Source of the DNA: an uncultured Bacilli bacterium
Lineage (GTDB): Bacteria; Bacillota_I; Bacilli_A; RF39; UBA660
DNA: 64,000 bases
NCBI GenBank assembly: GCA_944329385.1
Contig: CALVIE010000002.1
Location: forward strand, 775 to 64,774
Reading direction: 5' to 3'
Part shown: positions 2,774-15,550 of the stretch, piece after piece
Position numbering within the stretch: position 1 is the stretch's first letter
Layout: each line of letters starts with the position of its first letter
Made by a program: the position numbers and the translations under genes
Notes under the pieces: generated by a model
What the model saw: the letters and a program-made list of their open reading frames with translations, nothing else
What the model was told of the DNA's origin: nothing
The model's database searches: none

Positions 2774-3100
2774 ATGCTAGAGATAGATATGACCTCGAGG
2801 TATGGTATTTTGTTTGTGAGGTTATTTGGTGAAGTAACTAAAAAAACAAGAAAAAAATTAAATGATGAAGCTGGGGCATTAATTAAGAAAGCCGGAATAT
2901 TGAATGTTGTTTTTAATTTGGAAAATGTAAGTATGATGGATGAAAGTGGATTTAAGACAGTTGTTAAATATTATAATTTATGTAACAGAAATAATGGTAA
3001 TAGCTTGATTTGTTTAAGCAAAAATCGTTTTAATTTTGATTTTACTAGATTTAATATGGTTCCTGATGAATTTTCAGCTATTAAAGTAGTCAATATATGA
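2774..3100 (+). CDS. STAS-domain anti-sigma-factor antagonist (SpoIIAA-like)
   Basis: 108 aa with the STAS pattern ...VVFNLENVSMMDESGFKTVV... It sits immediately upstream of a SigF-type sigma factor. Confidence 0.7.
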   Translation: MLEIDMTSRYGILFVRLFGEVTKKTRKKLNDEAGALIKKAGILNVVFNLENVSMMDESGFKTVVKYYNLCNRNNGNSLICLSKNRFNFDFTRFNMVPDEFSAIKVVNI

Positions 3101-4697: not shown

Positions 4698-5680
4698 CAT
4701 TTAAGTTTAATAATGTTTATATAAATGCATCATCTACGGTAACGGGTCCTTATGAAAGCAATGGTCCTATTGGAAAGTATTTTGATTTGTGTCACGGAGA
4801 TTTATATTTTGGAAATAGGAATTGGGAGGAAGCTGAGGAGTATTTAATTAAAGAAAGTTTTAGTATTTTAGAAAAAAAATGTGGAGTTAATTTAAAAGAT
4901 ATAGATCTTTTTATTGGTGGTGATTTATTAAATCAAATTGCTCCTTCTAATTATGCGATGAGTAATTTTGATAAGAGTTTTATTGGAATTTATGCGGCAT
5001 GTGCGACATCAACTTTAGGACTTATTTTAGGAGGAAGTTTGATTGAAGGTGGTTTTGCGAAAAAAATATTAACATTTACGTCATCACATAATATGGCTGC
5101 TGAAAAACAATATCGTTATCCGACAGAATATGGAGGTCCAAAACCAAAGACAGTGACGTTTACAGCTACGGGAGCGGCTTCATGTTTACTTACTTCAAGT
5201 GGTAATATTAAACTTGAAAGCGGAACAATTGGTACATCTGTCGATTCTACGGTAAAAGATGTTTTTAATATGGGGGCTGTAATGGCTAAGGCGGCAGCTG
5301 ATACGATAGTTAGACATTTGAAGGATACTGGACGAGATATTGATTATTATGATTTGATTTTAACAGGTGATTTGGGAGTATATGGTAAGAAAATTTTAAA
5401 GGAGTATATGAATATGGAATATGGAATAAAACTAAAAAAATATAACGATACTGGAGTAATGCTTTATGATAGAAAAGAGCAGCCAGTTTATGCGGGAGCT
5501 TCTGGGCCTGTTTGTGCACCGCTTGTTACTTATAGTTATATATTTGATGAGATGCGTAAGGGAAAATATAAAAAAGTACTTTTGGCGGCAACTGGGGCAC
5601 TTATGAGTCCTACAATGGTTAATCATAAGCTTTCTATTCCAGCTATTTGTCATGCGGTTAGTTTGGAGGCTACTATATGA
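4694..5680 (+). CDS. spoVAD: Stage V sporulation protein AD
   Basis: 328 aa with a thiolase-like fold. The N-terminus ...STVTGPYESNGPIGKYFD resembles SpoVAD. A 4-nt overlap gives translational coupling with spoVAC. Confidence 0.85.
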   Translation: MTFKFNNVYINASSTVTGPYESNGPIGKYFDLCHGDLYFGNRNWEEAEEYLIKESFSILEKKCGVNLKDIDLFIGGDLLNQIAPSNYAMSNFDKSFIGIYAACATSTLGLILGGSLIEGGFAKKILTFTSSHNMAAEKQYRYPTEYGGPKPKTVTFTATGAASCLLTSSGNIKLESGTIGTSVDSTVKDVFNMGAVMAKAAADTIVRHLKDTGRDIDYYDLILTGDLGVYGKKILKEYMNMEYGIKLKKYNDTGVMLYDRKEQPVYAGASGPVCAPLVTYSYIFDEMRKGKYKKVLLAATGALMSPTMVNHKLSIPAICHAVSLEATI

Positions 5681-6027
5681 TATATTTAAATGCTTTTATT
5701 TTTGCTGGATTAGTATGTGCTTTGGGACAAATTATTTTAGATACAACTAAATTGACACCTGGTCATATTACGGTTATATTTGTGGTTGTTGGAGCTTTTT
5801 TGGATATTTTTAATATATATGATAGGCTTGTTTTGTGGGCAGGTGGTGGTGCACTTGTACCAATTACAAGTTTTGGTCATAATTTAATTCATGGGGCAAT
5901 TCATGGATATAATACTGAGGGTGTTTTAGGACTTTTTAGTGGAACTTTAGATTTAACAGCAGCTGGTATTAGTGCGGCTATTATATTTGCTTTCTTTTTG
6001 TCACTTGTTTTTGAACCTAAAGATTAA
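5677..6027 (+). CDS. spoVAEB: Stage V sporulation protein AE (AEB type)
   Basis: 116-aa membrane protein related to SpoVAC, with a 4-nt overlap with spoVAD. Confidence 0.8.
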   Translation: MIYLNAFIFAGLVCALGQIILDTTKLTPGHITVIFVVVGAFLDIFNIYDRLVLWAGGGALVPITSFGHNLIHGAIHGYNTEGVLGLFSGTLDLTAAGISAAIIFAFFLSLVFEPKD

Positions 6028-6030
6028 ACT

Positions 6031-6054
6031 TCTAGTGTTTACTAGATGTTTTTT
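6031..6054 (+). terminator. Weak terminator candidate after the spoVA genes
   Basis: Stem tctagt/actaga with loop gttt, followed by tgtttttt. Confidence 0.4.
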
Positions 6055-6055
6055 A

Positions 6056-6084
6056 TTGACAAACCTTTGTTCGTTTAGTAGAAT
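6056..6084 (+). promoter_or_regulatory. SigA-type promoter
   Basis: TTGACA (6056-6061), 17-nt spacer, TAGAAT (6079-6084). Confidence 0.6.
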
Positions 6085-6142
6085 GGTTATAGCAAATATA
6101 AGTATTGACATTGATGATATAATAGTTTTGGATGTGATTAAA

Positions 6143-6601
6143 ATGTTTGTTGTTGGTTATAAAGCTTTTAATAAAGATTTGACTAATAGATATGGTGATA
6201 AATTTGAGGTTGGAAAGGTTTATCATGCAGATGGTGAAATTAAGTGGGGAAATAATGGCAATGGCTTTCATTTATGTACATATTTAGAGGATTGTTTTAG
6301 ATATGTAGATCCTAATATTTCATTAATAACTGAGGTAATTGGTTTTGGTAAGATAAAAAAATATGATGATGATTATTATGGATATTATGATATGTATGTG
6401 TGTGAAAATTTGAGGGTTGTTAGGGTGATTTCTAGAGAAGAAATTATTAGTATGATGCTTAATACGTATGATGATAGAAAAGATAGATTTATTAGGGATT
6501 TTAATTTAACTTTAGATGAGTTAAAATTGTTTGAAGGAGTGGATGAATATGGATCAAATTATAGTGAAAGGTGCGAGGGAAAACAATTTAAAAAATATTA
6601 A
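6143..6601 (+). CDS. Hypothetical protein (DUF7666-like by recollection)
   Basis: The internal ATG at 6143 gives MFVVGYKAFNKDLTNRYGDKFEVGKVYHADGEIKWGNNGNGFHLCTYLEDCFRYVD. The upstream part of the tracked ORF (5972-) overlaps spoVAE and the promoter. The 3' end overlaps the uvrA start by about 50 nt. Confidence 0.5.
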   Translation: MFVVGYKAFNKDLTNRYGDKFEVGKVYHADGEIKWGNNGNGFHLCTYLEDCFRYVDPNISLITEVIGFGKIKKYDDDYYGYYDMYVCENLRVVRVISREEIISMMLNTYDDRKDRFIRDFNLTLDELKLFEGVDEYGSNYSERCEGKQFKKY

Positions 6602-9368
6602 TATTACTTTGCCTAAGAATAAGTTAATTGTTATGACGGGAGTTTCTGGGAGTGGTAAAAGTAGTTTAGCTTTTGATACGATTTATGCGGAAGGGCAAAG
6701 AAGATATATTGAAAGTTTAAGTGCTTATGCAAGGCAGTTTTTAGGTGGGTCTGAGAAACCCGATGTCGATAGTATTGACGGTCTTTCACCGGCGATTAGT
6801 ATTGATCAGAAAACGACTAATAAAAATCCGCGTAGTACGGTTGGAACAGTTACGGAAATTTATGATTATTTAAGGCTTTTATTCGCGCGTATTGGAGTAC
6901 CATATTGCCCTAAACATCATATTCCAATTAGTAGTCAAAGTATTGAAGAGATGTGTAATGATGTGATGAAGCTTCCTGAGAGAACAAAAATTAGAGTTTT
7001 AGGACCAGCTGTTTCTTTAGAAAAAGGGACGCATAAGGATTTACTTTTAAATTTAAGAAAAGATGGGTATGTAAGAGTTATTATTGATGATAATGAATAT
7101 GATTTATCTGAGGATATTGAGCTTGATAAGAATAAGAAACATACAATTGAAGTTATTGTTGATAGACTAGTTATTAAACCGGATATTAGAAGTAGGCTTT
7201 ATGAGAGTATGGAGGTTGCTTCAAAACTTGGACATGGTAAGTTATTAATAGATGTTATAGGCGGGGAAAAGATGCTTATGAGTGAAACTTATGCTTGTCC
7301 TTATTGTGATTTTTCTTTACCTGAACTTGAACCTAGGATGTTTTCATTTAATGCACCTTGGGGAGCTTGCCCAGAGTGTAAGGGGCTTGGAGTTAAGTAT
7401 AAGATAGATGAGGATTTGATTATTCTAGATAAAAGTTTAAGTATTAATGAGGGGGCTATTTCGGCTATTAATACTTCTGATGAGAGCAATATTACTTATA
7501 CTAATTTGGAAACAGCGTGCAGGCATCACTCTATTGATATGGATAAACCGGTTCGTGATTTATCTAGAGATGAGCTTGATATTGTTTTATATGGTTCACC
7601 TGATTTGCTTACTTTTAATTATGTTTCTAAAAGTGGTAATAAGAGAACGACTAAAGGTTATTTTGAGGGTATTATTACTAATTTAGAAAGACGTTATATG
7701 GAAACTAAGAGTACTTGGATTAGGGCGTGGATAGAAAATTATATGACGGAGCTTAAGTGTCCAAAATGTCATGGAGCAAGGCTTAATGATGATGTTTTAG
7801 CTGTTTTAGTTGGTGGCAAGAATATTTATGAAGTGACACAATTTAGTATTAAGGATTTATATTCATTTTTAAGTGATTTGAGGCTTACTAAAGAACAAAA
7901 GGAAATATCTGAGCTTATTATTAAGGAAATTAGTTCTAGGCTTTCATTTTTGATTAATGTTGGACTTGAGTATTTAACTTTAGATAGAGAGGCGAAGACT
8001 TTATCTGGTGGTGAGGCTCAAAGAATTAGATTAGCTACACAAATTGGTTCACAGCTTACGGGTGTTTTATATGTTTTAGATGAACCTAGCATTGGTCTTC
8101 ATCAAAGGGATAATCAAAGATTAATTAATTCTCTTTTGAAGATGCGTGATTTGGGTAATACACTTATTGTGGTTGAGCACGATACTGATACAATGCTTGA
8201 GGCGGATTATTTAGTAGATATTGGTCCGGCTGCTGGTGTTCATGGTGGTGAGGTTGTAGCTGCAGGTACACCTAAAGAGGTTATGGCTAATCCAAACAGT
8301 TTGACTGGTAAGTATTTGACTGGTGAGATGAAAATTGAGGTTCCTTCAAAAAGAAGGAAGGGAAATAAGAAATATTTAGAAATAGTGGGAACTAAAGAGA
8401 ATAATTTAAAAAATATTAAGGTTAAGTTTCCACTTGGTAAGTTTATTTGTGTGACTGGGGTATCTGGAAGTGGTAAAAGTACTTTAGTTAATGAGATTTT
8501 ATACAAGGTTGTTTCTAATAATTTGTATAAGTCTAAGGAAAAACCTGGGGCTTATAAATCAGTTAAAGGTCTTGAGAATATTGATAAGGTTATAGATATT
8601 TCTCAAGCACCGATTGGAAGAACACCTCGTAGTAATCCGGCTACTTATACATCTGTTTTTGATGATATTCGTGATGTTTTTGCAGAAACTAAAGAGGCAA
8701 AAATGAGAGGTTATGATAAAGGAAGATTTTCATTTAATGTTAAAGGCGGAAGATGTGAAGCGTGCTGGGGTGATGGTGTTAAGAAAATCGAGATGCATTT
8801 TTTACCTGATGTTTATGTACCTTGTGAGGTTTGTCATGGAACACGTTATAATAGCGAAACTTTACAGATTAAATACAAGGGTAAGAATATTTATGAAGTT
8901 TTAGAGATGACAGTTGAAGAGGCTTTAAAGTTTTTTGAAAATGTTACAAAAATTAAGAATAAATTACAAATGCTTTCTGATGTTGGACTTTCTTATATAA
9001 AACTTGGTCAAAGTGCACCAACACTGTCTGGTGGTGAGGCAGCTAGAATTAAGCTTGCAAAAGAGCTGCAAAAAAAGCCTACAGGCAAGAGTTTGTTTAT
9101 TTTAGATGAACCAACTACTGGGCTTCATTCTGATGATATTAAGAAGTTACTTGTTATTTTAAATAGGATAGTTGATAATGGAGATACAGTTTTGGTTATT
9201 GAACACAATTTAGATGTTATTAAGCAAGCTGATTATATTATTGATTTGGGTCCAGAAGGCGGCGATGGTGGCGGCGAGATTGTTGTTACTGGAACACCTG
9301 AGGAAGTTGTTTTATGTGAGAAAAGTTATACTGGTAAGTTTTTAAAACCTTATTTGACTATAGATTAA
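6549..9368 (+). CDS. uvrA: Excinuclease ABC subunit A
   Basis: Two ABC modules (GVSGSGKSSLAFDT and GVSGSGKSTLVNE, LSGGEAQR and LSGGEAAR) and zinc-finger Cys clusters (CPYCDF..CPECKG, CEACWGDG..CEVCHG). ATG at 6549 lies 9 nt after RBS gaaggag. Confidence 0.97.
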   Translation: MDQIIVKGARENNLKNINITLPKNKLIVMTGVSGSGKSSLAFDTIYAEGQRRYIESLSAYARQFLGGSEKPDVDSIDGLSPAISIDQKTTNKNPRSTVGTVTEIYDYLRLLFARIGVPYCPKHHIPISSQSIEEMCNDVMKLPERTKIRVLGPAVSLEKGTHKDLLLNLRKDGYVRVIIDDNEYDLSEDIELDKNKKHTIEVIVDRLVIKPDIRSRLYESMEVASKLGHGKLLIDVIGGEKMLMSETYACPYCDFSLPELEPRMFSFNAPWGACPECKGLGVKYKIDEDLIILDKSLSINEGAISAINTSDESNITYTNLETACRHHSIDMDKPVRDLSRDELDIVLYGSPDLLTFNYVSKSGNKRTTKGYFEGIITNLERRYMETKSTWIRAWIENYMTELKCPKCHGARLNDDVLAVLVGGKNIYEVTQFSIKDLYSFLSDLRLTKEQKEISELIIKEISSRLSFLINVGLEYLTLDREAKTLSGGEAQRIRLATQIGSQLTGVLYVLDEPSIGLHQRDNQRLINSLLKMRDLGNTLIVVEHDTDTMLEADYLVDIGPAAGVHGGEVVAAGTPKEVMANPNSLTGKYLTGEMKIEVPSKRRKGNKKYLEIVGTKENNLKNIKVKFPLGKFICVTGVSGSGKSTLVNEILYKVVSNNLYKSKEKPGAYKSVKGLENIDKVIDISQAPIGRTPRSNPATYTSVFDDIRDVFAETKEAKMRGYDKGRFSFNVKGGRCEACWGDGVKKIEMHFLPDVYVPCEVCHGTRYNSETLQIKYKGKNIYEVLEMTVEEALKFFENVTKIKNKLQMLSDVGLSYIKLGQSAPTLSGGEAARIKLAKELQKKPTGKSLFILDEPTTGLHSDDIKKLLVILNRIVDNGDTVLVIEHNLDVIKQADYIIDLGPEGGDGGGEIVVTGTPEEVVLCEKSYTGKFLKPYLTID

Positions 9369-9384
9369 TTTCTATAGTTTTTTT
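9358..9384 (+). terminator. Rho-independent terminator of uvrA
   Basis: Stem ctataga/tctatag with loop ttaat, then T7. It overlaps the stop codon. Confidence 0.7.
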
Positions 9385-9441
9385 GTTTTTTAAAGGAAAA
9401 TTTCTAAAAAAATCGTATGTTTATATATAGAGGTGAAAATT

Positions 9442-10326
9442 ATGAATTACTATGATGAAATAAAAGGTGTTTTAGTAAAAAATGAGGTTTATAAAAAAGT
9501 AAAAGATTATTCAAAAAACAGAAGTGATTTAAATGCTTACTTTGAAGTGGGCAGATTAATAGTGGAAGCTCAAGGTGGTGAGGCAAGGGCCAAATATGGA
9601 AATAAGTTAATCAAAGAATATTCTATTAGATTAACTGAGGAGCTTGGTAAGGGGTATACTGAGAGAAATTTACGTAATATGCGGAATTTTTATATTAAAT
9701 TTAGGAAATGGTACGCAGTGCGTACCGAATTAACTTGGACGCATTATCGTGTAATGTTATCATTAACAGATTTTAAAGAAATTGAATATTATATGAATAT
9801 TGCAGTGATACAAAACCTTTCATATAGAGAACTTAGAGAAAGAATAAAGTCGAAAGAATATGAAAGACTTGGAAAAGATATTAATATAGAAGAGCCAAAA
9901 GTAAATACATTAATTAAAAATCCAATATTGATCAAAGTTAAAAATAAAAATGAAAGGTTAACTGAATATGCCTTACATCAATCTATTTTAGAAAATATTG
10001 ATGATTTTTTAAAGGAACTTGGTATTGGTTTTACTTTTGCAGGTAGTGAAATAAAAATTCAAATAGGTGATAGATATAATTATATAGACTTCTTGTTATT
10101 TAATGTAAAATTTAATTGTTATGTAGTAATCGAACTTAAAATTACAGAAATGAAAGCTGAATATATTGGTCAAATTATGAAATATGTTAGTTATGTTGAT
10201 AAGCATATTAAAGAAATGCATAATGATAAAACAGTAGGTGTAATTATTTGCAGAAAAGAAAATAAATATGTGATGGAGTATTGTACAAACCTTAATATAT
10301 TTGTATCTACTTATGAAACTATATAG
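9442..10326 (+). CDS. DUF1016/YhcG-family PD-(D/E)XK nuclease, paralog 1 of 4
   Basis: The N-terminal DUF1016-type region (...FEVGRLIVEAQGGEARAKYG...NMRNFY...LTWTHYR) and the C-terminal nuclease core (YIDFLLFNVKFNCYVVIELK) match the family. ATG at 9442 after RBS aggtga aligns with the starts of copies 2-4. Confidence 0.8.
   Translation: MNYYDEIKGVLVKNEVYKKVKDYSKNRSDLNAYFEVGRLIVEAQGGEARAKYGNKLIKEYSIRLTEELGKGYTERNLRNMRNFYIKFRKWYAVRTELTWTHYRVMLSLTDFKEIEYYMNIAVIQNLSYRELRERIKSKEYERLGKDINIEEPKVNTLIKNPILIKVKNKNERLTEYALHQSILENIDDFLKELGIGFTFAGSEIKIQIGDRYNYIDFLLFNVKFNCYVVIELKITEMKAEYIGQIMKYVSYVDKHIKEMHNDKTVGVIICRKENKYVMEYCTNLNIFVSTYETI
9710..9726. repeat. 17-nt perfect palindrome inside paralog 1
   Basis: ggtacgca-g-tgcgtacc, GC-rich in an AT-rich gene, centred on the first base of the Val codon of the A-V-R motif. 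Confidence 0.9.
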
Positions 10327-10340
10327 AAAGAAGTGATAAT

Positions 10341-11225
10341 GTGAATTATTATAATGAAATAAAAGATACGCTGGTTAAAAATGAAGTTTATAAAAAGGTT
10401 AAAGATTATTCTAAAAATAGAAGTGATCTAAATGCTTATTTTGAAGTAGGAAGATTAATTGTAGAAGCTCAGGGCGGTGAAGCTAGAGCTAAATATGGAA
10501 ATAGACTGATTAAAGAATATTCTTTAAAATTAACTGAGGAGCTTGGTAGAGGATATAATGTTACAAATTTAAAAAATATGAGGCAATTTTATTTAAGAAT
10601 TAAAAAAGGTCGCACAGTGTGCGACCAATTGCAATGGAGTCATTATAGATATTTATTGCCTATTATTGATGAACAAGCTTTTGATTATTATGTTATGATT
10701 ACAGAAATGTTAAATTTATCAGTAAGGGAACTTAGAGAAAGGATTAAGTCGAAAGAATATGAAAGAATTGGTAAGAATGTAAATTTAGAAAATACTAAAG
10801 TAAATACATTAATTAAGAATCCAATATTAATTAAAGTAAAAAATAAAAATGAAAGGTTAACTGAATATGCTTTACATCAATCTATTTTAGAAAATATGGA
10901 AAATTTTTTGAAAGAATTAGGTGTTGGTTTTGCTTTTATCGGTAGTGAAATAAAAATTAAAATGGGTGATAGATATAACTATATAGATTTTTTACTATTT
11001 AATGTTAAATATAATTGTTATGTAGTAATTGAACTTAAAATAACAGAAATGAAAGCTGAATATATAGGACAAGTTACTAAATATATAAATTATGTAGATA
11101 AACATATTAAAGAAATGCATAATGATAAAACAGTAGGTGTAATTATTTGCAGAAAAGAAAATAAATATGTGATGGAGTATTGTACAAACCTTAATATATT
11201 TGTATCTACTTATGAAACTATATAG
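10341..11225 (+). CDS. DUF1016/YhcG-family PD-(D/E)XK nuclease, paralog 2 of 4
   Basis: 294 aa with a GTG start 14 nt after the previous stop. It has the same architecture as paralog 1, and its 3' ~125 nt are identical to copy 1. Confidence 0.8.
   Translation: MNYYNEIKDTLVKNEVYKKVKDYSKNRSDLNAYFEVGRLIVEAQGGEARAKYGNRLIKEYSLKLTEELGRGYNVTNLKNMRQFYLRIKKGRTVCDQLQWSHYRYLLPIIDEQAFDYYVMITEMLNLSVRELRERIKSKEYERIGKNVNLENTKVNTLIKNPILIKVKNKNERLTEYALHQSILENMENFLKELGVGFAFIGSEIKIKMGDRYNYIDFLLFNVKYNCYVVIELKITEMKAEYIGQVTKYINYVDKHIKEMHNDKTVGVIICRKENKYVMEYCTNLNIFVSTYETI
10608..10626. repeat. 19-nt perfect palindrome inside paralog 2
   Basis: ggtcgcaca-g-tgtgcgacc, at the same codon position as in paralog 1. Confidence 0.9.
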
Positions 11226-11239
11226 AAAGAAGTGATAAT

Positions 11240-12133
11240 GTGAATTATTATAATGAAATAAAAGATACGCTGGTTAAAAATGAAGTTTATAAAAAGGTTA
11301 AAGATTATTCTAAAAATAGAAGTGATCTAAATGCTTATTTTGAAGTAGGAAGATTAATTGTAGAAGCTCAGGGCGGTGAAACTAGAGCTAAATATGGAAA
11401 TAGACTGATTAAAGAATATTCTTTAAAATTAACTAAGGAACTCGGCAAAGGATATACTTATACTAATTTGAGTAGAATGAGACAATTTTATTTACTTTCT
11501 TTAAAAGTTGCGACACTGTCGCAACAATTATATAAAATTAGTTGGAGTCATTATACTGAATTATTGAAAATTAAAAATGTAAATGAATTAAAATATTATA
11601 TCTATGTTATTCAAAAGCAAAACTTATCAGTAAGAGAGCTTAGGGAAAGAATAAAGACTAATGAGTATGAAAGGTTAGGGAGTAAAACAAAGTTAGAAGA
11701 GCCAAAAGTAAATACATTAATTAAAAATCCAATATTGCTCAAAATTAAAAATAAAAATGATAAATTAACAGAATATGCTTTACACCAATCTATTTTAGAA
11801 AATATGGATGTTTTTTTAAAAGAATTAGGTGTTGGTTTTACTTATGTAGGCAATGAAGTAAAGATTAACATAGGAACTAGTTTTCATTATATTGATTTTT
11901 TACTTTTTAACGTGAAATTTAATTGTTATGTTGTAGTAGAACTTAAGATAACTGAATTTAAAGCTGAATATATTGGACAGGTTATGAAATATATAAATTA
12001 TGTTGATAAAAATATTAAAGAGTGTTTTAATGATAAAACGGTTGGTGTGATTATTTGCAGAAAAGAAAATAAATATGTTATGGAATACTGCACGGATAAT
12101 AGGATATTTACTACTACATATGAAACTATATAG
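11240..12133 (+). CDS. DUF1016/YhcG-family PD-(D/E)XK nuclease, paralog 3 of 4
   Basis: 297 aa with a GTG start. The 5' end is nearly identical to copies 2 and 4, and the 3' ~270 nt are identical to copy 4. Confidence 0.8.
   Translation: MNYYNEIKDTLVKNEVYKKVKDYSKNRSDLNAYFEVGRLIVEAQGGETRAKYGNRLIKEYSLKLTKELGKGYTYTNLSRMRQFYLLSLKVATLSQQLYKISWSHYTELLKIKNVNELKYYIYVIQKQNLSVRELRERIKTNEYERLGSKTKLEEPKVNTLIKNPILLKIKNKNDKLTEYALHQSILENMDVFLKELGVGFTYVGNEVKINIGTSFHYIDFLLFNVKFNCYVVVELKITEFKAEYIGQVMKYINYVDKNIKECFNDKTVGVIICRKENKYVMEYCTDNRIFTTTYETI
11507..11525. repeat. 19-nt perfect palindrome inside paralog 3
   Basis: gttgcgaca-c-tgtcgcaac, at the same codon position as in the other copies. Confidence 0.9.
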
Positions 12134-12147
12134 AAAGAAGTGATAAT

Positions 12148-13041
12148 GTGAATTATTATAATGAAATAAAAGATACGCTGGTTAAAAATGAAGTTTATAA
12201 AAAGATTAAAGATTATTCTAAAAATAGAAGTGATCTTAATACCTATTTTGAAGTAGGAAGATTAATTGTAGAAGCTCAGGGCGGTGAAGCTAGAGCTAAA
12301 TATGGAAATAAACTGATTAAAGAATATTCAGCAAAATTAACTATGGAACTTGGTAAAGGATATGGTGTATCTAATTTAAAGAGAATGAGGCAGTTTTATT
12401 TATTGTTTGAAAAAGGTGCCTCACTGCGGCACCTTTTTGGAAATCTTACTTGGACTCACTATAAATATTTATTACCTTTAAATGATAACAAGAAAATATC
12501 TTATTATATGAATATTGCAATATCTGAAAATTTATCATACCGTGAGTTAAGAGAAAAAATAAAAATTAACGAGTATGAAAGGTTAGAAAATAAAATAGAG
12601 TTAGAAGAGCCAAAAGTAAATACATTAATTAAAAATCCAATATTAATTAAAGTAAAAAATAAAAATGAAAAGTTAAGTGAGTATGCACTGCACCAATCTA
12701 TATTAGAAAATATGGGAGATTTTTTGAAAGAGCTTGGCATTGGATTTTTATATGCAGGTAGTGAAGTAAAGATTAACATAGGAACTAGTTTTCATTATAT
12801 TGATTTTTTACTTTTTAACGTGAAATTTAATTGTTATGTTGTAGTAGAACTTAAGATAACTGAATTTAAAGCTGAATATATTGGACAGGTTATGAAATAT
12901 ATAAATTATGTTGATAAAAATATTAAAGAGTGTTTTAATGATAAAACGGTTGGTGTGATTATTTGCAGAAAAGAAAATAAATATGTTATGGAATACTGCA
13001 CGGATAATAGGATATTTACTACTACATATGAAACTATATAG
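12148..13041 (+). CDS. DUF1016/YhcG-family PD-(D/E)XK nuclease, paralog 4 of 4
   Basis: 297 aa with a GTG start and the same architecture as the other copies. Confidence 0.8.
   Translation: MNYYNEIKDTLVKNEVYKKIKDYSKNRSDLNTYFEVGRLIVEAQGGEARAKYGNKLIKEYSAKLTMELGKGYGVSNLKRMRQFYLLFEKGASLRHLFGNLTWTHYKYLLPLNDNKKISYYMNIAISENLSYRELREKIKINEYERLENKIELEEPKVNTLIKNPILIKVKNKNEKLSEYALHQSILENMGDFLKELGIGFLYAGSEVKINIGTSFHYIDFLLFNVKFNCYVVVELKITEFKAEYIGQVMKYINYVDKNIKECFNDKTVGVIICRKENKYVMEYCTDNRIFTTTYETI
12410..12438. repeat. 29-nt near-perfect palindrome inside paralog 4
   Basis: 11-bp arms aaaaaggtgcc/ggcaccttttt around tcactgc, whose ca/tg can also pair. It sits at the same codon position as in the other copies. 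Confidence 0.85.
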
Positions 13042-13047
13042 AAAGAT

Positions 13048-13758
13048 TTATCTTTTGCTAAAAATATAAAGAAATAAGGAACTGGAAGAAATTACTAAGA
13101 GTGTAAATAATAGAATATATATTTCTATACCCAAGTTATTTATTAAATTGATAAGAATGTCATTTACTGATGTTCCAAAAAATTGAATGTTAAAAATAGC
13201 TACATTATCTACATAATTTGAAAAATTAAACGGATCTAAAAATGTATTTAAAAAAATATAATTGGATCCATTTTTTATTAAGGAATTGGCTATATATGCT
13301 AGAAAAATTTGAATAAACATTAATAAAATGTTTTTAAAGGAAAATTTAGCTTTATAGTTTTTGGTTATAAATGCTCCAGATATTAATAAAAAGAAGTGAT
13401 AGAGATAACAATATAAGTTATTAAAGTTGAGTATTTTTGGATTTGTAAAGAAAATGGCAGCAATAGAAAAAAATATTCCGAAGGCGCTTAAGTAATTTAA
13501 TAGAAATTCTTTTTTGGTTTTTAGATAAATTATACCAATAATAGGGTATAGGTAACAAAGTTGAAGAGGTAAATCATTATTTAGATGGAAATTATTAGTG
13601 AAAATTAAAAATAAAAATTTTGATATTTCTAAGAATAATAATAGAAGTAAGATGTTTGTTAAGTTTGCTTTATTTTTTTTTAGTTTAAATCCAATTATGA
13701 TAGGCAATATTATAAGAGTTAAAATGATTAATATATGGGGTATAGAAAATATTTTCAT
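13048..13758 (-). CDS. Polytopic integral membrane protein, function unknown (possibly YwaF/TIGR02206-like)
   Basis: 236 aa and almost entirely hydrophobic helices. The family assignment is only a recollection-level guess. Confidence 0.5.
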   Translation of the reverse strand: MKIFSIPHILIILTLIILPIIIGFKLKKNKANLTNILLLLLFLEISKFLFLIFTNNFHLNNDLPLQLCYLYPIIGIIYLKTKKEFLLNYLSAFGIFFSIAAIFFTNPKILNFNNLYCYLYHFFLLISGAFITKNYKAKFSFKNILLMFIQIFLAYIANSLIKNGSNYIFLNTFLDPFNFSNYVDNVAIFNIQFFGTSVNDILINLINNLGIEIYILLFTLLVISSSSLFLYIFSKR

Positions 13759-14386: not shown

Positions 14387-14441
14387 GTTTTTTTAAAATA
14401 TTTTTTTATAATTAATATGTAAGATTGTGGGGGTTTATATA

Positions 14442-14627
14442 ATGAAAGAATTTATGAAGAGATATTTGTGTGGTTTTTTAATAGGTGGAATTTTATTTGG
14501 AAGTATTAGTGTGAAAGGAATGAGTGAGTTTTATAGTAATGATGTAAGTTATGATAATAAGGAAAGTGGTCTTACATCTACAAATGTAAAAAGTGCGATA
14601 GATGAACTTTATAATGTGTGTAAATAG
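14442..14627 (+). CDS. Small membrane-anchored protein with a TSTNV-x-A-x-DELY motif
   Basis: ATG after RBS gtggggg. An N-terminal TM helix is followed by SGLTSTNVKSAIDELYNVC, the same motif found at the N-terminus of the next gene. Confidence 0.55.
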   Translation: MKEFMKRYLCGFLIGGILFGSISVKGMSEFYSNDVSYDNKESGLTSTNVKSAIDELYNVCK

Positions 14628-14641
14628 AAAGGACATATATT

Positions 14642-15550
14642 ATGAAAAGAAAATTTTATTTTAAAGAAAATTTTATTGGTTTTATTGTAGGAGCGTTTGT
14701 TTTTAGTGTTGGAGGTGTTTTGGCGGTAACTTATTTTCCAAGTTCATCTACAGTTTATGATAATTCTGATAGTGGAATGACATCAACAAATGTTCAAGAT
14801 GCTGTGGATGAATTATATGAGGTTTGTTCTGCAAAACCTGCAGGAGAACAAATAATAGAAGATGCAGGATTAATAAAAGATCTTTATGAATGTAGATATT
14901 TTTTTACAGGGGCAAATCCTAATAATTATATAACATTTAATAATGAAATGGCTGGATGGAGAATTATGTCTGTAGAATGTGATGGTACTATAAAAATTAT
15001 AAAAAATGAAACGATTGGGAAAGCAGCTTGGAGCTCATTATTAAATACTTGGCAGAATGCATCACTTAATACAAAGTTAAACAGAGATTATTATAATGGA
15101 CTAAATTCTATAGCGCAAAACCAAATTGTCCAACATAATTGGAGTATAGGTTTAGTAACTTATGAAAATAATGATTTGGCAAATCAAATATATAACGAAA
15201 ATAGTGAGCAATGGACTGGTAAAATTGCGTTGCCAACTGTTAGTGAGTATATAAGAAGTAATAGTGATCAAAGTAGCTGTGGAACTTTTAGTAAAATAAA
15301 TGATAATACAAGAACATGTCAAGATAGCAGTTGGATGGTTATAAATAAACAATGGTGGACTTTATCAAAAGGTAATATTACTGATAGAGCTGTATATATA
15401 GTTAGTAATAATGGTGCTATATCTAGTATGGATGCTAGTTATTATAATGCTTATGTAGGTTATGAAGGAAGGCCGTCTTTCTATTTATCTGCAGATATTA
15501 AAATAATCGGTGGTGATGGTTCGCAAAGTAATCCATATATGATAGAGTAG
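14642..15550 (+). CDS. Membrane-anchored lectin-like protein (paralog of 2..274)
   Basis: An N-terminal TM helix and SGMTSTNVQDAVDELYEVC are followed by the C-terminal module WWTLS..RAVYIVSNNGAIS..GRPSFYL..GGDGSQSNPYMIE. Confidence 0.65.
   Translation: MKRKFYFKENFIGFIVGAFVFSVGGVLAVTYFPSSSTVYDNSDSGMTSTNVQDAVDELYEVCSAKPAGEQIIEDAGLIKDLYECRYFFTGANPNNYITFNNEMAGWRIMSVECDGTIKIIKNETIGKAAWSSLLNTWQNASLNTKLNRDYYNGLNSIAQNQIVQHNWSIGLVTYENNDLANQIYNENSEQWTGKIALPTVSEYIRSNSDQSSCGTFSKINDNTRTCQDSSWMVINKQWWTLSKGNITDRAVYIVSNNGAISSMDASYYNAYVGYEGRPSFYLSADIKIIGGDGSQSNPYMIE

Follow-up and report, generated by a model that had tools for sequence, protein, structure and literature searches.

We analysed a 64-kb stretch of contig CALVIE010000002.1 from an uncultured Bacilli bacterium (assembly GCA_944329385.1), referred to here as the window, in which four intact YhcG/DUF1016 open reading frames (ORFs) lie head-to-tail on the plus strand at positions 9442-13041. 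Copy 1, a YhcG/DUF1016 putative nuclease, occupies 9442-10326 and encodes 294 amino acids (aa) from an ATG start; its length of 297 aa in the ORF list reflects an upstream GTG. Copy 2 (10341-11225, 294 aa), copy 3 (11240-12133, 297 aa) and copy 4 (12148-13041, 297 aa) all begin with GTG, and the three plus-strand spacers (10327-10340, 11226-11239 and 12134-12147) consist of the same 14 nucleotides (nt), AAAGAAGTGATAAT. A first-pass annotation, made from the sequence, had described four intact same-strand DUF1016/YhcG genes of 294-297 aa with identical 14-nt spacers, and every detail of that description was correct.

The upstream uvrA gene stops at 9368, and the 73-nt gap before copy 1 is the sole space for a promoter of the array's own. 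A Shine-Dalgarno-like GAGGTG on the plus strand (9430-9435) precedes the ATG of copy 1; copies 2-4 have GAAGTG followed by GTG. The starts of copies 2-4 (10338-10346, 11237-11245 and 12145-12153) read aATGTGAat, an ATG met at once by TGA and overlapping the GTG start. At the far end, the stop codon of copy 4 lies 6 nt from that of a convergent TMEM164-like gene (13048-13758, minus strand).

All four copies matched DUF1016_N (E 1e-29 to 1e-32; 102-111 bits, cut-off 32.8) and YhcG_C (E 1e-33 to 1e-37; 116-129 bits, cut-off 32.5), the family being catalogued as Pfam PF17761 and PF06250, as COG4804 and, in PADLOC, as the candidate single-gene defence system PDC-S02. The PDC-S02 hidden Markov models matched every copy at E 2e-69 to 8e-69 and E. 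coli YhcG at 2e-131, and E. coli K-12 YhcG aligns end to end with the window copies at 28-29% identity. Residues E192, D216, E231-L-K233 and G243-Q244 are conserved; the motif E...D...E-x-K is invariant and is kept in all four copies (D216 and E231-x-K233 in copy 2). A first AlphaFold run on a shallow alignment gave a mean confidence score (pLDDT) of 59.8 and an unusable C-terminal domain, and a second run, on a 120-sequence alignment spanning distant clades, reached 86.8. The N-terminal domain is helical in the model. Foldseek matched the C-terminal domain to NucS/EndoMS (2vld and 5gke, E 4e-6 to 1.5e-5) and further to Card1/Can2, Bax1 and Shedu SduA (to E 1e-3), in agreement with its placement by Kosinski et al. 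2005 near archaeal Holliday-junction resolvases (PMC1189080). PDB sequence and profile searches gave no sequence-level match to a solved structure. By motif and modelled alpha/beta core fold, the copies qualify as PD-(D/E)XK nucleases, with nuclease activity as the predicted function.

The array is not an assembly artefact. A contig from a different metagenome (L165) matches it at 100% through copies 1 and 2 and the start of copy 3, and long-read circular metagenome-assembled genomes of related species, OZ007022.1 (hifiasm) and OZ007038.1 (metaFlye), carry arrays of two to three copies. A scan of one genome per species yielded 80 loci, nearly all from uncultured small-genome gut 'Bacilli' whose closed genomes measure 1.3-1.5 Mb; 79 of them have a full-length intact copy and, with the window added, make up the 80 loci analysed. 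Counting full-length intact copies only, two tandem genes occur in 20 of these loci, three in 3 and four in 2, with spacers of ~14-24 nt. The first-pass expectation that the family is usually single-copy therefore fails in this lineage, where 25 of 80 loci hold 2-4 intact copies.

Strains differ as well, both in copy number and in cassettes, a kind of variation for which the first-pass annotation had proposed a check. The slot between uvrA and the TMEM164-like gene holds four copies in the window and two in L162-L164, whose uvrA is 96% identical to that of the window, and at a second locus (ftsW/FGase) the same protein occurs in two-copy and one-copy forms. In strain L162 the second gene matches copy 2 at 99% in the centre but at only 86% over its first 200 nt, where it matches copy 1 at 93%; it is a mosaic, since its centre follows copy 2 and its 5' end is nearer copy 1. 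This gene starts with ATG behind a different spacer, AAAGAGATGATTAG. The centre of the first L162 gene resembles no window copy, and L163 and L164 carry two copies each with only 6 positions different. The locus is thus a copy-number-polymorphic array of four intact YhcG/DUF1016 putative-nuclease paralogues, each with a helical domain at the N-terminus and a NucS/EndoMS-like PD-(D/E)XK domain at the C-terminus.

Some further observations concern arrays elsewhere. Tandem yhcG pairs were also seen in Ignavibacteriales and Bacteroidota contigs (L127 2501-4581 and L156 2501-4811), where the second gene bears a different palindrome type, TCAACA-N-TGTTGA; palindrome-diversified arrays therefore extend beyond the gut Bacilli lineage. 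At the ftsW/FGase site of a related genome, an AbiEi/AbiEii toxin-antitoxin pair (L166 523-1967) lies ~4 kb upstream of a two-copy yhcG array, and in other strains (L167) a serine recombinase occupies its place.

Concerted ends and distinct centres

Identity along the four genes is strongly mosaic. The 5' block of copy 2 (10341-10535) has one mismatch against copy 3 (11240-11434), identity being complete over alignment columns 1-141 and 143-195, and copy 4 is 95-98% identical there. A 137-nt block comprising the 3' end of copy 1 and spacer 1 (10204-10340) recurs exactly at the end of copy 2 (11103-11239), and a 285-nt block at the 3' end of copy 3 (11854-12138) recurs at that of copy 4 (12762-13046). 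Columns ~211-400 show 38-77% identity in all pairs, against 82-100% elsewhere for the homogenised pairs. The variable central cassettes lie on the plus strand at 9658-9837 in copy 1 (nt 217-396 of the gene), 10557-10736 in copy 2, 11456-11644 in copy 3 and 12364-12552 in copy 4. The first-pass figures of ~190, ~125 and ~270 nt for the shared ends and codons 62-150 for the variable part come close to the measured 195, 137 and 285 nt and columns ~211-400.

In a codon alignment of 112 copies, we then set 41 pairs of copies within arrays, drawn from 25 loci, against pairs between loci. Identity was 0.88 within arrays and 0.74 between loci for the 5' segment (nt 1-210), 0.84 and 0.70 for the 3' segment (nt 400-882), and 0.62 and 0.61 for the centre (nt 217-396). 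Third codon positions behaved likewise, with 0.78, 0.56 and 0.74 for the 5' segment, centre and 3' segment within arrays and 0.59, 0.55 and 0.56 between loci. Because within-array and between-locus identities differ at the ends alone, the ends are homogenised within arrays and the centres are not. These alignments indicate concerted evolution of the flanks around old, distinct central cassettes (~codons 73-131), with unequal crossing-over or gene conversion apparently keeping the 5' parts, 3' parts and spacers alike. The first-pass proposal of concerted evolution or gene conversion at the ends with a cassette-like middle is borne out by these 25 arrays, in which the centres are as diverged within an array as between loci.

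The centres have their best counterparts in other species (0.80-0.84 identity for copies 1-3). The ratio of non-synonymous to synonymous substitution rates (dN/dS) between such cross-species counterparts is 0.08-0.21; for paralogues it rises to 0.25-0.69, dS being close to saturation. The centres are accordingly old types under purifying selection and not decaying duplicates; because each centre type shows this constraint, the copies are not neutral duplicates. Evenly spread divergence, which the first-pass annotation had named as the mark of plain neutral duplication, was not found: ends and centre differ sharply, strains vary and dN/dS is low.

A palindrome within each centre and across the family

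The centre of each copy contains its own G+C-rich palindrome, at the same aligned position and in four different sequences. The palindromes are perfect, 17-19 nt long and centred on C-A-N-T-G, with copy 4 differing in build. That of copy 1 (9710-9726) reads GGTACGC-AGT-GCGTACC and encodes WYAVRTE; that of copy 2 (10608-10626), GGTCGCACA-G-TGTGCGACC, encodes GRTVCDQ; and that of copy 3 (11507-11525), GTTGCGACA-C-TGTCGCAAC, encodes VATLSQQ. The palindrome of copy 4 (12410-12438), AAAAAGGTGCC-TCACTGC-GGCACCTTTTT, encodes EKGASLRHLFG; its 6-bp G+C arms about a 7-nt centre are lengthened by A:T pairs to 11 bp, and it folds at -18.6 kcal/mol (z = -3.9). Apart from the palindromes of copies 1-3, no G+C-rich odd-centred dyad with arms of 7 bp or more occurs in the window, whose G+C content is 28.6%. 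In the AlphaFold model of copy 2, helices 74-88 and 99-105 are joined by a loop made up of the encoded residues 89-98.

Several simple roles for these four sequences were tried. An intragenic terminator was rejected, no intrinsic terminator being predicted on the sense strand of the window genes; the single match, at the copy 2 palindrome, lies on the antisense strand, and the copy 4 palindrome has A5 and T5 flanks but a mid-gene position. Recombination breakpoints at the palindrome were not seen in the window. Phage targets of the window palindromes found no support, with no viral contig matching the copy 2 type and three matching the copy 3 type; one of the three is a phage yhcG gene itself and the other two belong to one unrelated lineage.

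The element extends far beyond the window. Among relatives, 89 of 97 full-length copies have their strongest perfect palindrome starting ~27 nt ahead of the W[ST]H codon, and in 86% of 196 copies from ~160 loci it is at 0.22-0.36 of gene length that the strongest odd-centred dyad falls. Nearly all of 80 loci found with E. coli YhcG carry [CG]CAGACA-N-TGTCTG[CG] at 0.25-0.30 of the gene, often in 2-3 units; the bacterial carriers belong to the Proteobacteria, Planctomycetota, Acidobacteriota, Bacteroidota, Cyanobacteria, Cloacimonadota and Bdellovibrionota, and the archaeal ones to the Woese-, Nano- and Micrarchaeota, Methanosarcinales and Altiarchaeales. Homologues hold 1-6 units in tandem, the general layout is of G+C-rich arms of ~7-9 bp about C-A-N-T-G in a segment coding for a surface loop, and the core CAGAC-NNN-GTCTG is kept from E. 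coli to Woesearchaeota. Arms are nearly constant in the broad family (28 distinct 8-mers in 74 copies, mainly TTCCAGAC and TGGCAGAC) and diversified in the array-bearing Bacilli (61 distinct 8-mers in 101 copies). Within a cassette type, where the remaining centre is at least 0.8 identical, palindrome identity is 0.94 and exceeds that of its surroundings; between types the palindrome falls to 0.49-0.57, against 0.57-0.64 for the remaining centre. Judged by this distribution, the dyad element is a defining feature of the whole YhcG family.

Codon usage points to selection on the nucleotides themselves. The mean arm measured 8.0 pairs, against 4.25 in synonymous-codon shuffles, and for 96 of 190 genes the observed arm was not reached in any of 100 shuffles. 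Among genes with a G+C content of 40% or less, Gln in the second codon of the unit was CAG in 60 of 61 cases (25% elsewhere) and the centre codon was NTG in 123 of 128 (24% elsewhere). The dyad centre fell on a first codon base in 163 of 175 elements, and at d = 3-8 each pair occurred as 3-4 Watson-Crick types with 96-100% pairing. Paired cells numbered 1009 of 1057, against 525 +/- 13 after column shuffling, a difference that arises partly by construction, the elements having been chosen as best dyads. Between closely related genes, compensatory double changes outnumbered one-sided changes by 67 to 29, as in GGTACGC of copy 1 and GGCACGC of L001. Because the shuffle, codon-choice, phase and covariation tests agree, the heptapeptide x-x-[TAPS]-[VLM]-x-x-x is evidently dictated by DNA symmetry, and the dyad element is under selection as a nucleotide sequence. 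In 139 of 175 elements the two bases at +/-1 are complementary (A..T), so the symmetry reaches the single central base. The 78 mismatches at d = 7-9 comprise 19 G:T, 21 A:C and 38 others and show no sense-strand G:U excess; the constraint leans towards the DNA level, on small counts.

The element is readily seen in E. coli, where yhcG was found in 4468 of 5426 complete genomes. The K-12 gene has three palindromes, in tandem and in frame, built of CAGAC-NNN-GTCTG cores and 13-18-nt arms, which encode IHQTMSGE, IPQTPSAE and IWQTLSAK (in MG1655, L081 8130-8240, equivalent to NC_000913.3 ~3368129-3368239). Alleles encode 349, 362 or 375 aa, in steps of one 13-codon (39-nt) unit, and have 1-3 such units, and the O157:H7 gene is 78 nt shorter than that of K-12. 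Truncated alleles were located at L308 1490-1520 and L309 2880-2910: one, IS1-linked, begins at nt 385 and another, widespread (E. coli B, C43(DE3), O104:H4), ends at nt 406, both inside the third palindrome. A third truncation begins at nt 235, outside any unit.

Copies also occur outside the coding sequence. An external Escherichia palindrome with the same core, ATTCTGCAGAC-AGT-GTCTGCAGAAT, lies 27 nt past the yhcG stop codon and is non-coding (MG1655, L081 8971-8995, NC_000913.3 ~3368970-3368994). The orthologous site of E. whittamii (L086), ATTCTCCAGAC-TAT-GTCTGGAGAAT, shows a compensatory change relative to E. coli, and its arms are identical to those of the second internal unit of E. whittamii yhcG. 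Upstream non-coding copies were found at L154 (two) and L182, and flanking copies at L112, L132 and L138. The consensus TTCCAGACANTGTCTGGAA occurs at no fewer than 122 sites in at least 120 genomic loci; among the matches listed, 102 lie inside yhcG-like genes, and among the remaining 20 are fragments of yhcG as well as intergenic palindromes that stand free and have extended arms. Viral contigs gave 14 matches, 13 of which come with no yhcG gene, whereas two scrambled controls gave 1 each; 8 of the 14 come from one phage lineage (L169 4305-4323 and seven related contigs), in which the site lies directly upstream of a GGAGG ribosome-binding site. An enrichment of the consensus outside yhcG genes was set aside, most viral matches being of one lineage and the genomic count being a lower bound.

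Other observations attach to these scattered copies. Free-standing sites with no yhcG in the locus were noted at L263 ~3000-3050, L267/L298, L277, L243, L208, L264 and L266, and some are flanked by an A-run and a T-run, like bidirectional terminators. In L169, a 493-aa ORF (5615-7096), by eye alone of TnpB/IS605 OrfB type, lies ~1.3 kb from the phage-borne palindrome. Units at L202 1942-1960 and 3238-3256 and at L252 2290-2345 sit in short broken frames that read like the yhcG loop (…FYLAYP…IFQTLSGKF…); these frames look like degraded or highly divergent yhcG copies overlooked by tblastn.

What the palindrome may be for

The first-pass annotation had supposed that the central region sets specificity, and the type-specific palindrome in each centre offers a concrete candidate for that idea. 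We favour, at a rough probability of 0.45, the reading that the palindrome is a cognate site, probably of DNA, for the N-terminal domain of its own product, the array then amounting to four orthogonal nuclease-site pairs. Recognition of the palindrome in its own gene would fall to the variable half of this domain, and the self-site might serve autoregulation or might mark or specify a target; four orthogonal pairs would widen specificity in a surveillance or defence role. In favour of a DNA-level, sequence-specific site are the lack of a G:U excess among mismatches, a core kept across the family and in the non-coding copies, a palindrome nearly constant within a cassette type yet more diverged between types than its surroundings, and the loop that it encodes. 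A wider version, in which every YhcG/DUF1016 gene in two domains of life carries its N-domain's own dyad site, protein and site co-diversify and arrays are repertoires, we put forward more tentatively, as a possibility that we doubt somewhat more than we credit. If true, this would amount to a specificity code that marks or regulates itself, for which defence and repair nucleases offer no described precedent.

A number of results weigh against a cognate site. The external copy accompanies only about one gene in ten, and each of the four window palindromes occurs just once in the 64 kb. Arms of 13-18 bp, as in Enterobacteria and others, exceed what a dimer site needs and would be more at home in a hairpin or cruciform. 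That palindrome and centre covary may reflect no more than their linkage in one cassette, and the most conserved protein motifs beside the loop, NLxxMRxFY and WSHY, stay unchanged when the palindrome changes. No significant structural relative of the N-terminal domain was found in the PDB or BFVD, nor by PDB profile search, and the matches to ParB/Noc helix-turn-helix (HTH) domains, at E ~1, came from the first, poor model alone. The notion that copies of one array never share a palindrome was set aside: none of 41 pairs shares arms, which is uninformative because the chance expectation is only ~0.7. As to a defence role, DUF1016/YhcG genes are enriched beside restriction-modification (R-M) and BREX loci (PMC9881135); in the sole published assay that we found, one PDC-S02 gene gave no protection against T4, T5 or T7 (bioRxiv 10.1101/2024.09.26.614923).

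The dyad could act instead as RNA, with an mRNA hairpin as a processing or decay site (for RNase III, for example), a translational pause, or a ligand that restrains the nuclease; in this last form it would resemble the RNA repeats of type III toxin-antitoxin systems, with paralogue-specific stems blocking cross-talk. Predicted hairpins of -11.6 to -18.6 kcal/mol (z down to -3.9), covarying stems with a conserved 3-nt tip and closing C-G pair, arms of up to 18 bp in 1-6 tandem units, the extra unit in the 3' untranslated region of Escherichia yhcG and the terminator-like build of some free-standing copies (A-run, stem, T-run) all fit such an element. Real RNA stems usually tolerate G:U, however, and G:U was no commoner than A:C at d = 7-9 (19 versus 21); a 3-nt loop does not need the +/-1 complementarity seen in 139 of 175 elements; no covariance model of Rfam 15 matched positions 9000-13500 on either strand at E up to 10; and inside the genes no sense-strand U-run follows the palindrome. 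We regard an RNA element as rather unlikely, though it keeps some weight.

Shape rather than sequence is what would matter if the palindrome were extruded as a hairpin or cruciform and cut by the protein's own junction- or mismatch-type nuclease domain or by host enzymes, the resulting breaks driving cassette exchange and changes in unit number and copy number. A catalytic domain nearest NucS/EndoMS and placed near archaeal Holliday-junction resolvases (PMC1189080) suits this proposal, as do G+C-rich perfect palindromes in A+T-rich flanks, the long arms in many species, unit numbers of 1-3 in E. coli and up to 6 elsewhere, the two independent E. coli truncations that break in the third palindrome (nt 385 and nt 406) and the strain differences in array copy number. 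If gene conversion followed breaks at the palindrome, however, the centre should be the first part to become homogenised, and the opposite is seen; the boundaries of the identity blocks in the window and L162 fall at ~nt 186-196, 390, 615 and 772, with the palindrome at 268-288. Shape alone also leaves the conserved CAGAC core of the non-coding copies unexplained, and the truncation at nt 235 lies outside any unit. On balance we consider a purely structural role unlikely. Neutral tandem duplication or an assembly artefact, with the palindromes arising incidentally from a conserved peptide or from insertion of a small repeat, is largely refuted and in our judgement highly improbable. Tandem duplicates with homogenised ends can arise without selection, the L163 and L164 copies are nearly identical (6 differences), and copies 2-4 have weak ribosome-binding sites and GTG starts; against this stand arrays in independent samples and long-read assemblies, four intact ORFs with their catalytic residues, conservation of each type across species with a centre dN/dS of 0.08-0.21, synonymous-shuffle and codon-choice tests that exclude a protein-only cause, and a codon position fixed across two domains of life.

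Genomic setting and comparison with known systems

The array sits in a housekeeping neighbourhood and not in a defence island. Gene order in the window is FtsK, sigma factor, SpoVA, DUF7666, UvrA, the array, the convergent TMEM164-like gene, an HTH protein, S12, S7, EF-G, EF-Tu, HisRS and AspRS. No R-M, invertase, recombinase or integrase gene was found within ~18 kb of the array. The DUF7666 ORF (5972-6601) immediately precedes uvrA and extends over the TTG predicted as its start, a position kept in strains L162, L163 and L165. Beyond the array, adjacent plus-strand ORFs of 66 and 302 aa (14427-14627 and 14642-15550) have in common a hydrophobic segment near the N-terminus and the motif YDN..SG[LM]TSTNV..A[IV]DELY.VC; the 302-aa ORF matches DUF6273, and the two look like a duplicated or truncated secreted-protein gene pair.

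The likeness to hsdS specificity genes that the first-pass annotation had drawn holds in part. Conserved recombining flanks, exchangeable variable middles and strain-to-strain variation are common to both. Unlike hsdS loci, the array consists of complete direct-repeat genes with their own starts, its variable part includes a cis-element as well as protein sequence, and there are no inverted repeats, recombinase or methylase. Anatomy of the hsdS shufflon or inversion type is not supported, as all copies are direct repeats and no hsdM, hsdS or hsdR neighbour, inverted repeat or invertase was found; the 14-nt spacers show no attC-like structure, which sets the locus apart from integron-type cassette arrays.

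Within the YhcG/DUF1016 family, the window copies are typical in two-domain architecture, catalytic motif and length. The literature treats the family as an uncharacterised, mostly solitary or R-M-embedded gene, whereas here it forms tandem polymorphic arrays in core-genome sites; neither these arrays nor the embedded palindrome was found described in the literature on YhcG/DUF1016. The C-terminal fold is shared with NucS/EndoMS and related PD-(D/E)XK proteins (Card1/Can2, Bax1, Shedu SduA), to which the YhcG N-terminal domain is unrelated.

DUF1016/YhcG is among the commonest uncharacterised nuclease families and a listed defence candidate, and an intragenic nucleotide element running from E. 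coli to Woesearchaeota is the first concrete handle on a possible YhcG recognition target, one directly testable in E. coli K-12. The gut Bacilli arrays offer a natural experiment, with four proteins and four palindromes in one operon-like unit. The element also presents a clear case of DNA symmetry dictating the amino-acid sequence of a coding segment, and such a peptide matters for annotation, for codon-model selection tests and for gene synthesis.

Two kinds of known system bear on these features. Repetitive extragenic palindromic (REP) elements and their RAYT transposases, together REPtrons, link palindromes to the gene of a nucleic-acid enzyme. The yhcG palindromes resemble them in being paralogue-specific, in being linked to such a gene and in having a few free-standing copies elsewhere; they differ in enzyme family and in lying at a fixed codon inside the ORF instead of being widely dispersed, with none elsewhere in the 64 kb. 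Genes that hold the site of their own product form the other kind: lambda O contains the ori iterons, B. subtilis spo0J contains parS, and terminase genes contain pac. YhcG differs from these in being a putative nuclease without a replication, partition or packaging context. It resembles them in that dyad units of ~19 bp, variable in number, lie inside a coding linker or loop segment, and in that the unit sequence shifts together with the adjacent type-specific half of the protein. The anatomy of the yhcG element, loop-coding, present in 1-6 units and linked to cassette type, is compatible with that of a gene-embedded cognate site.

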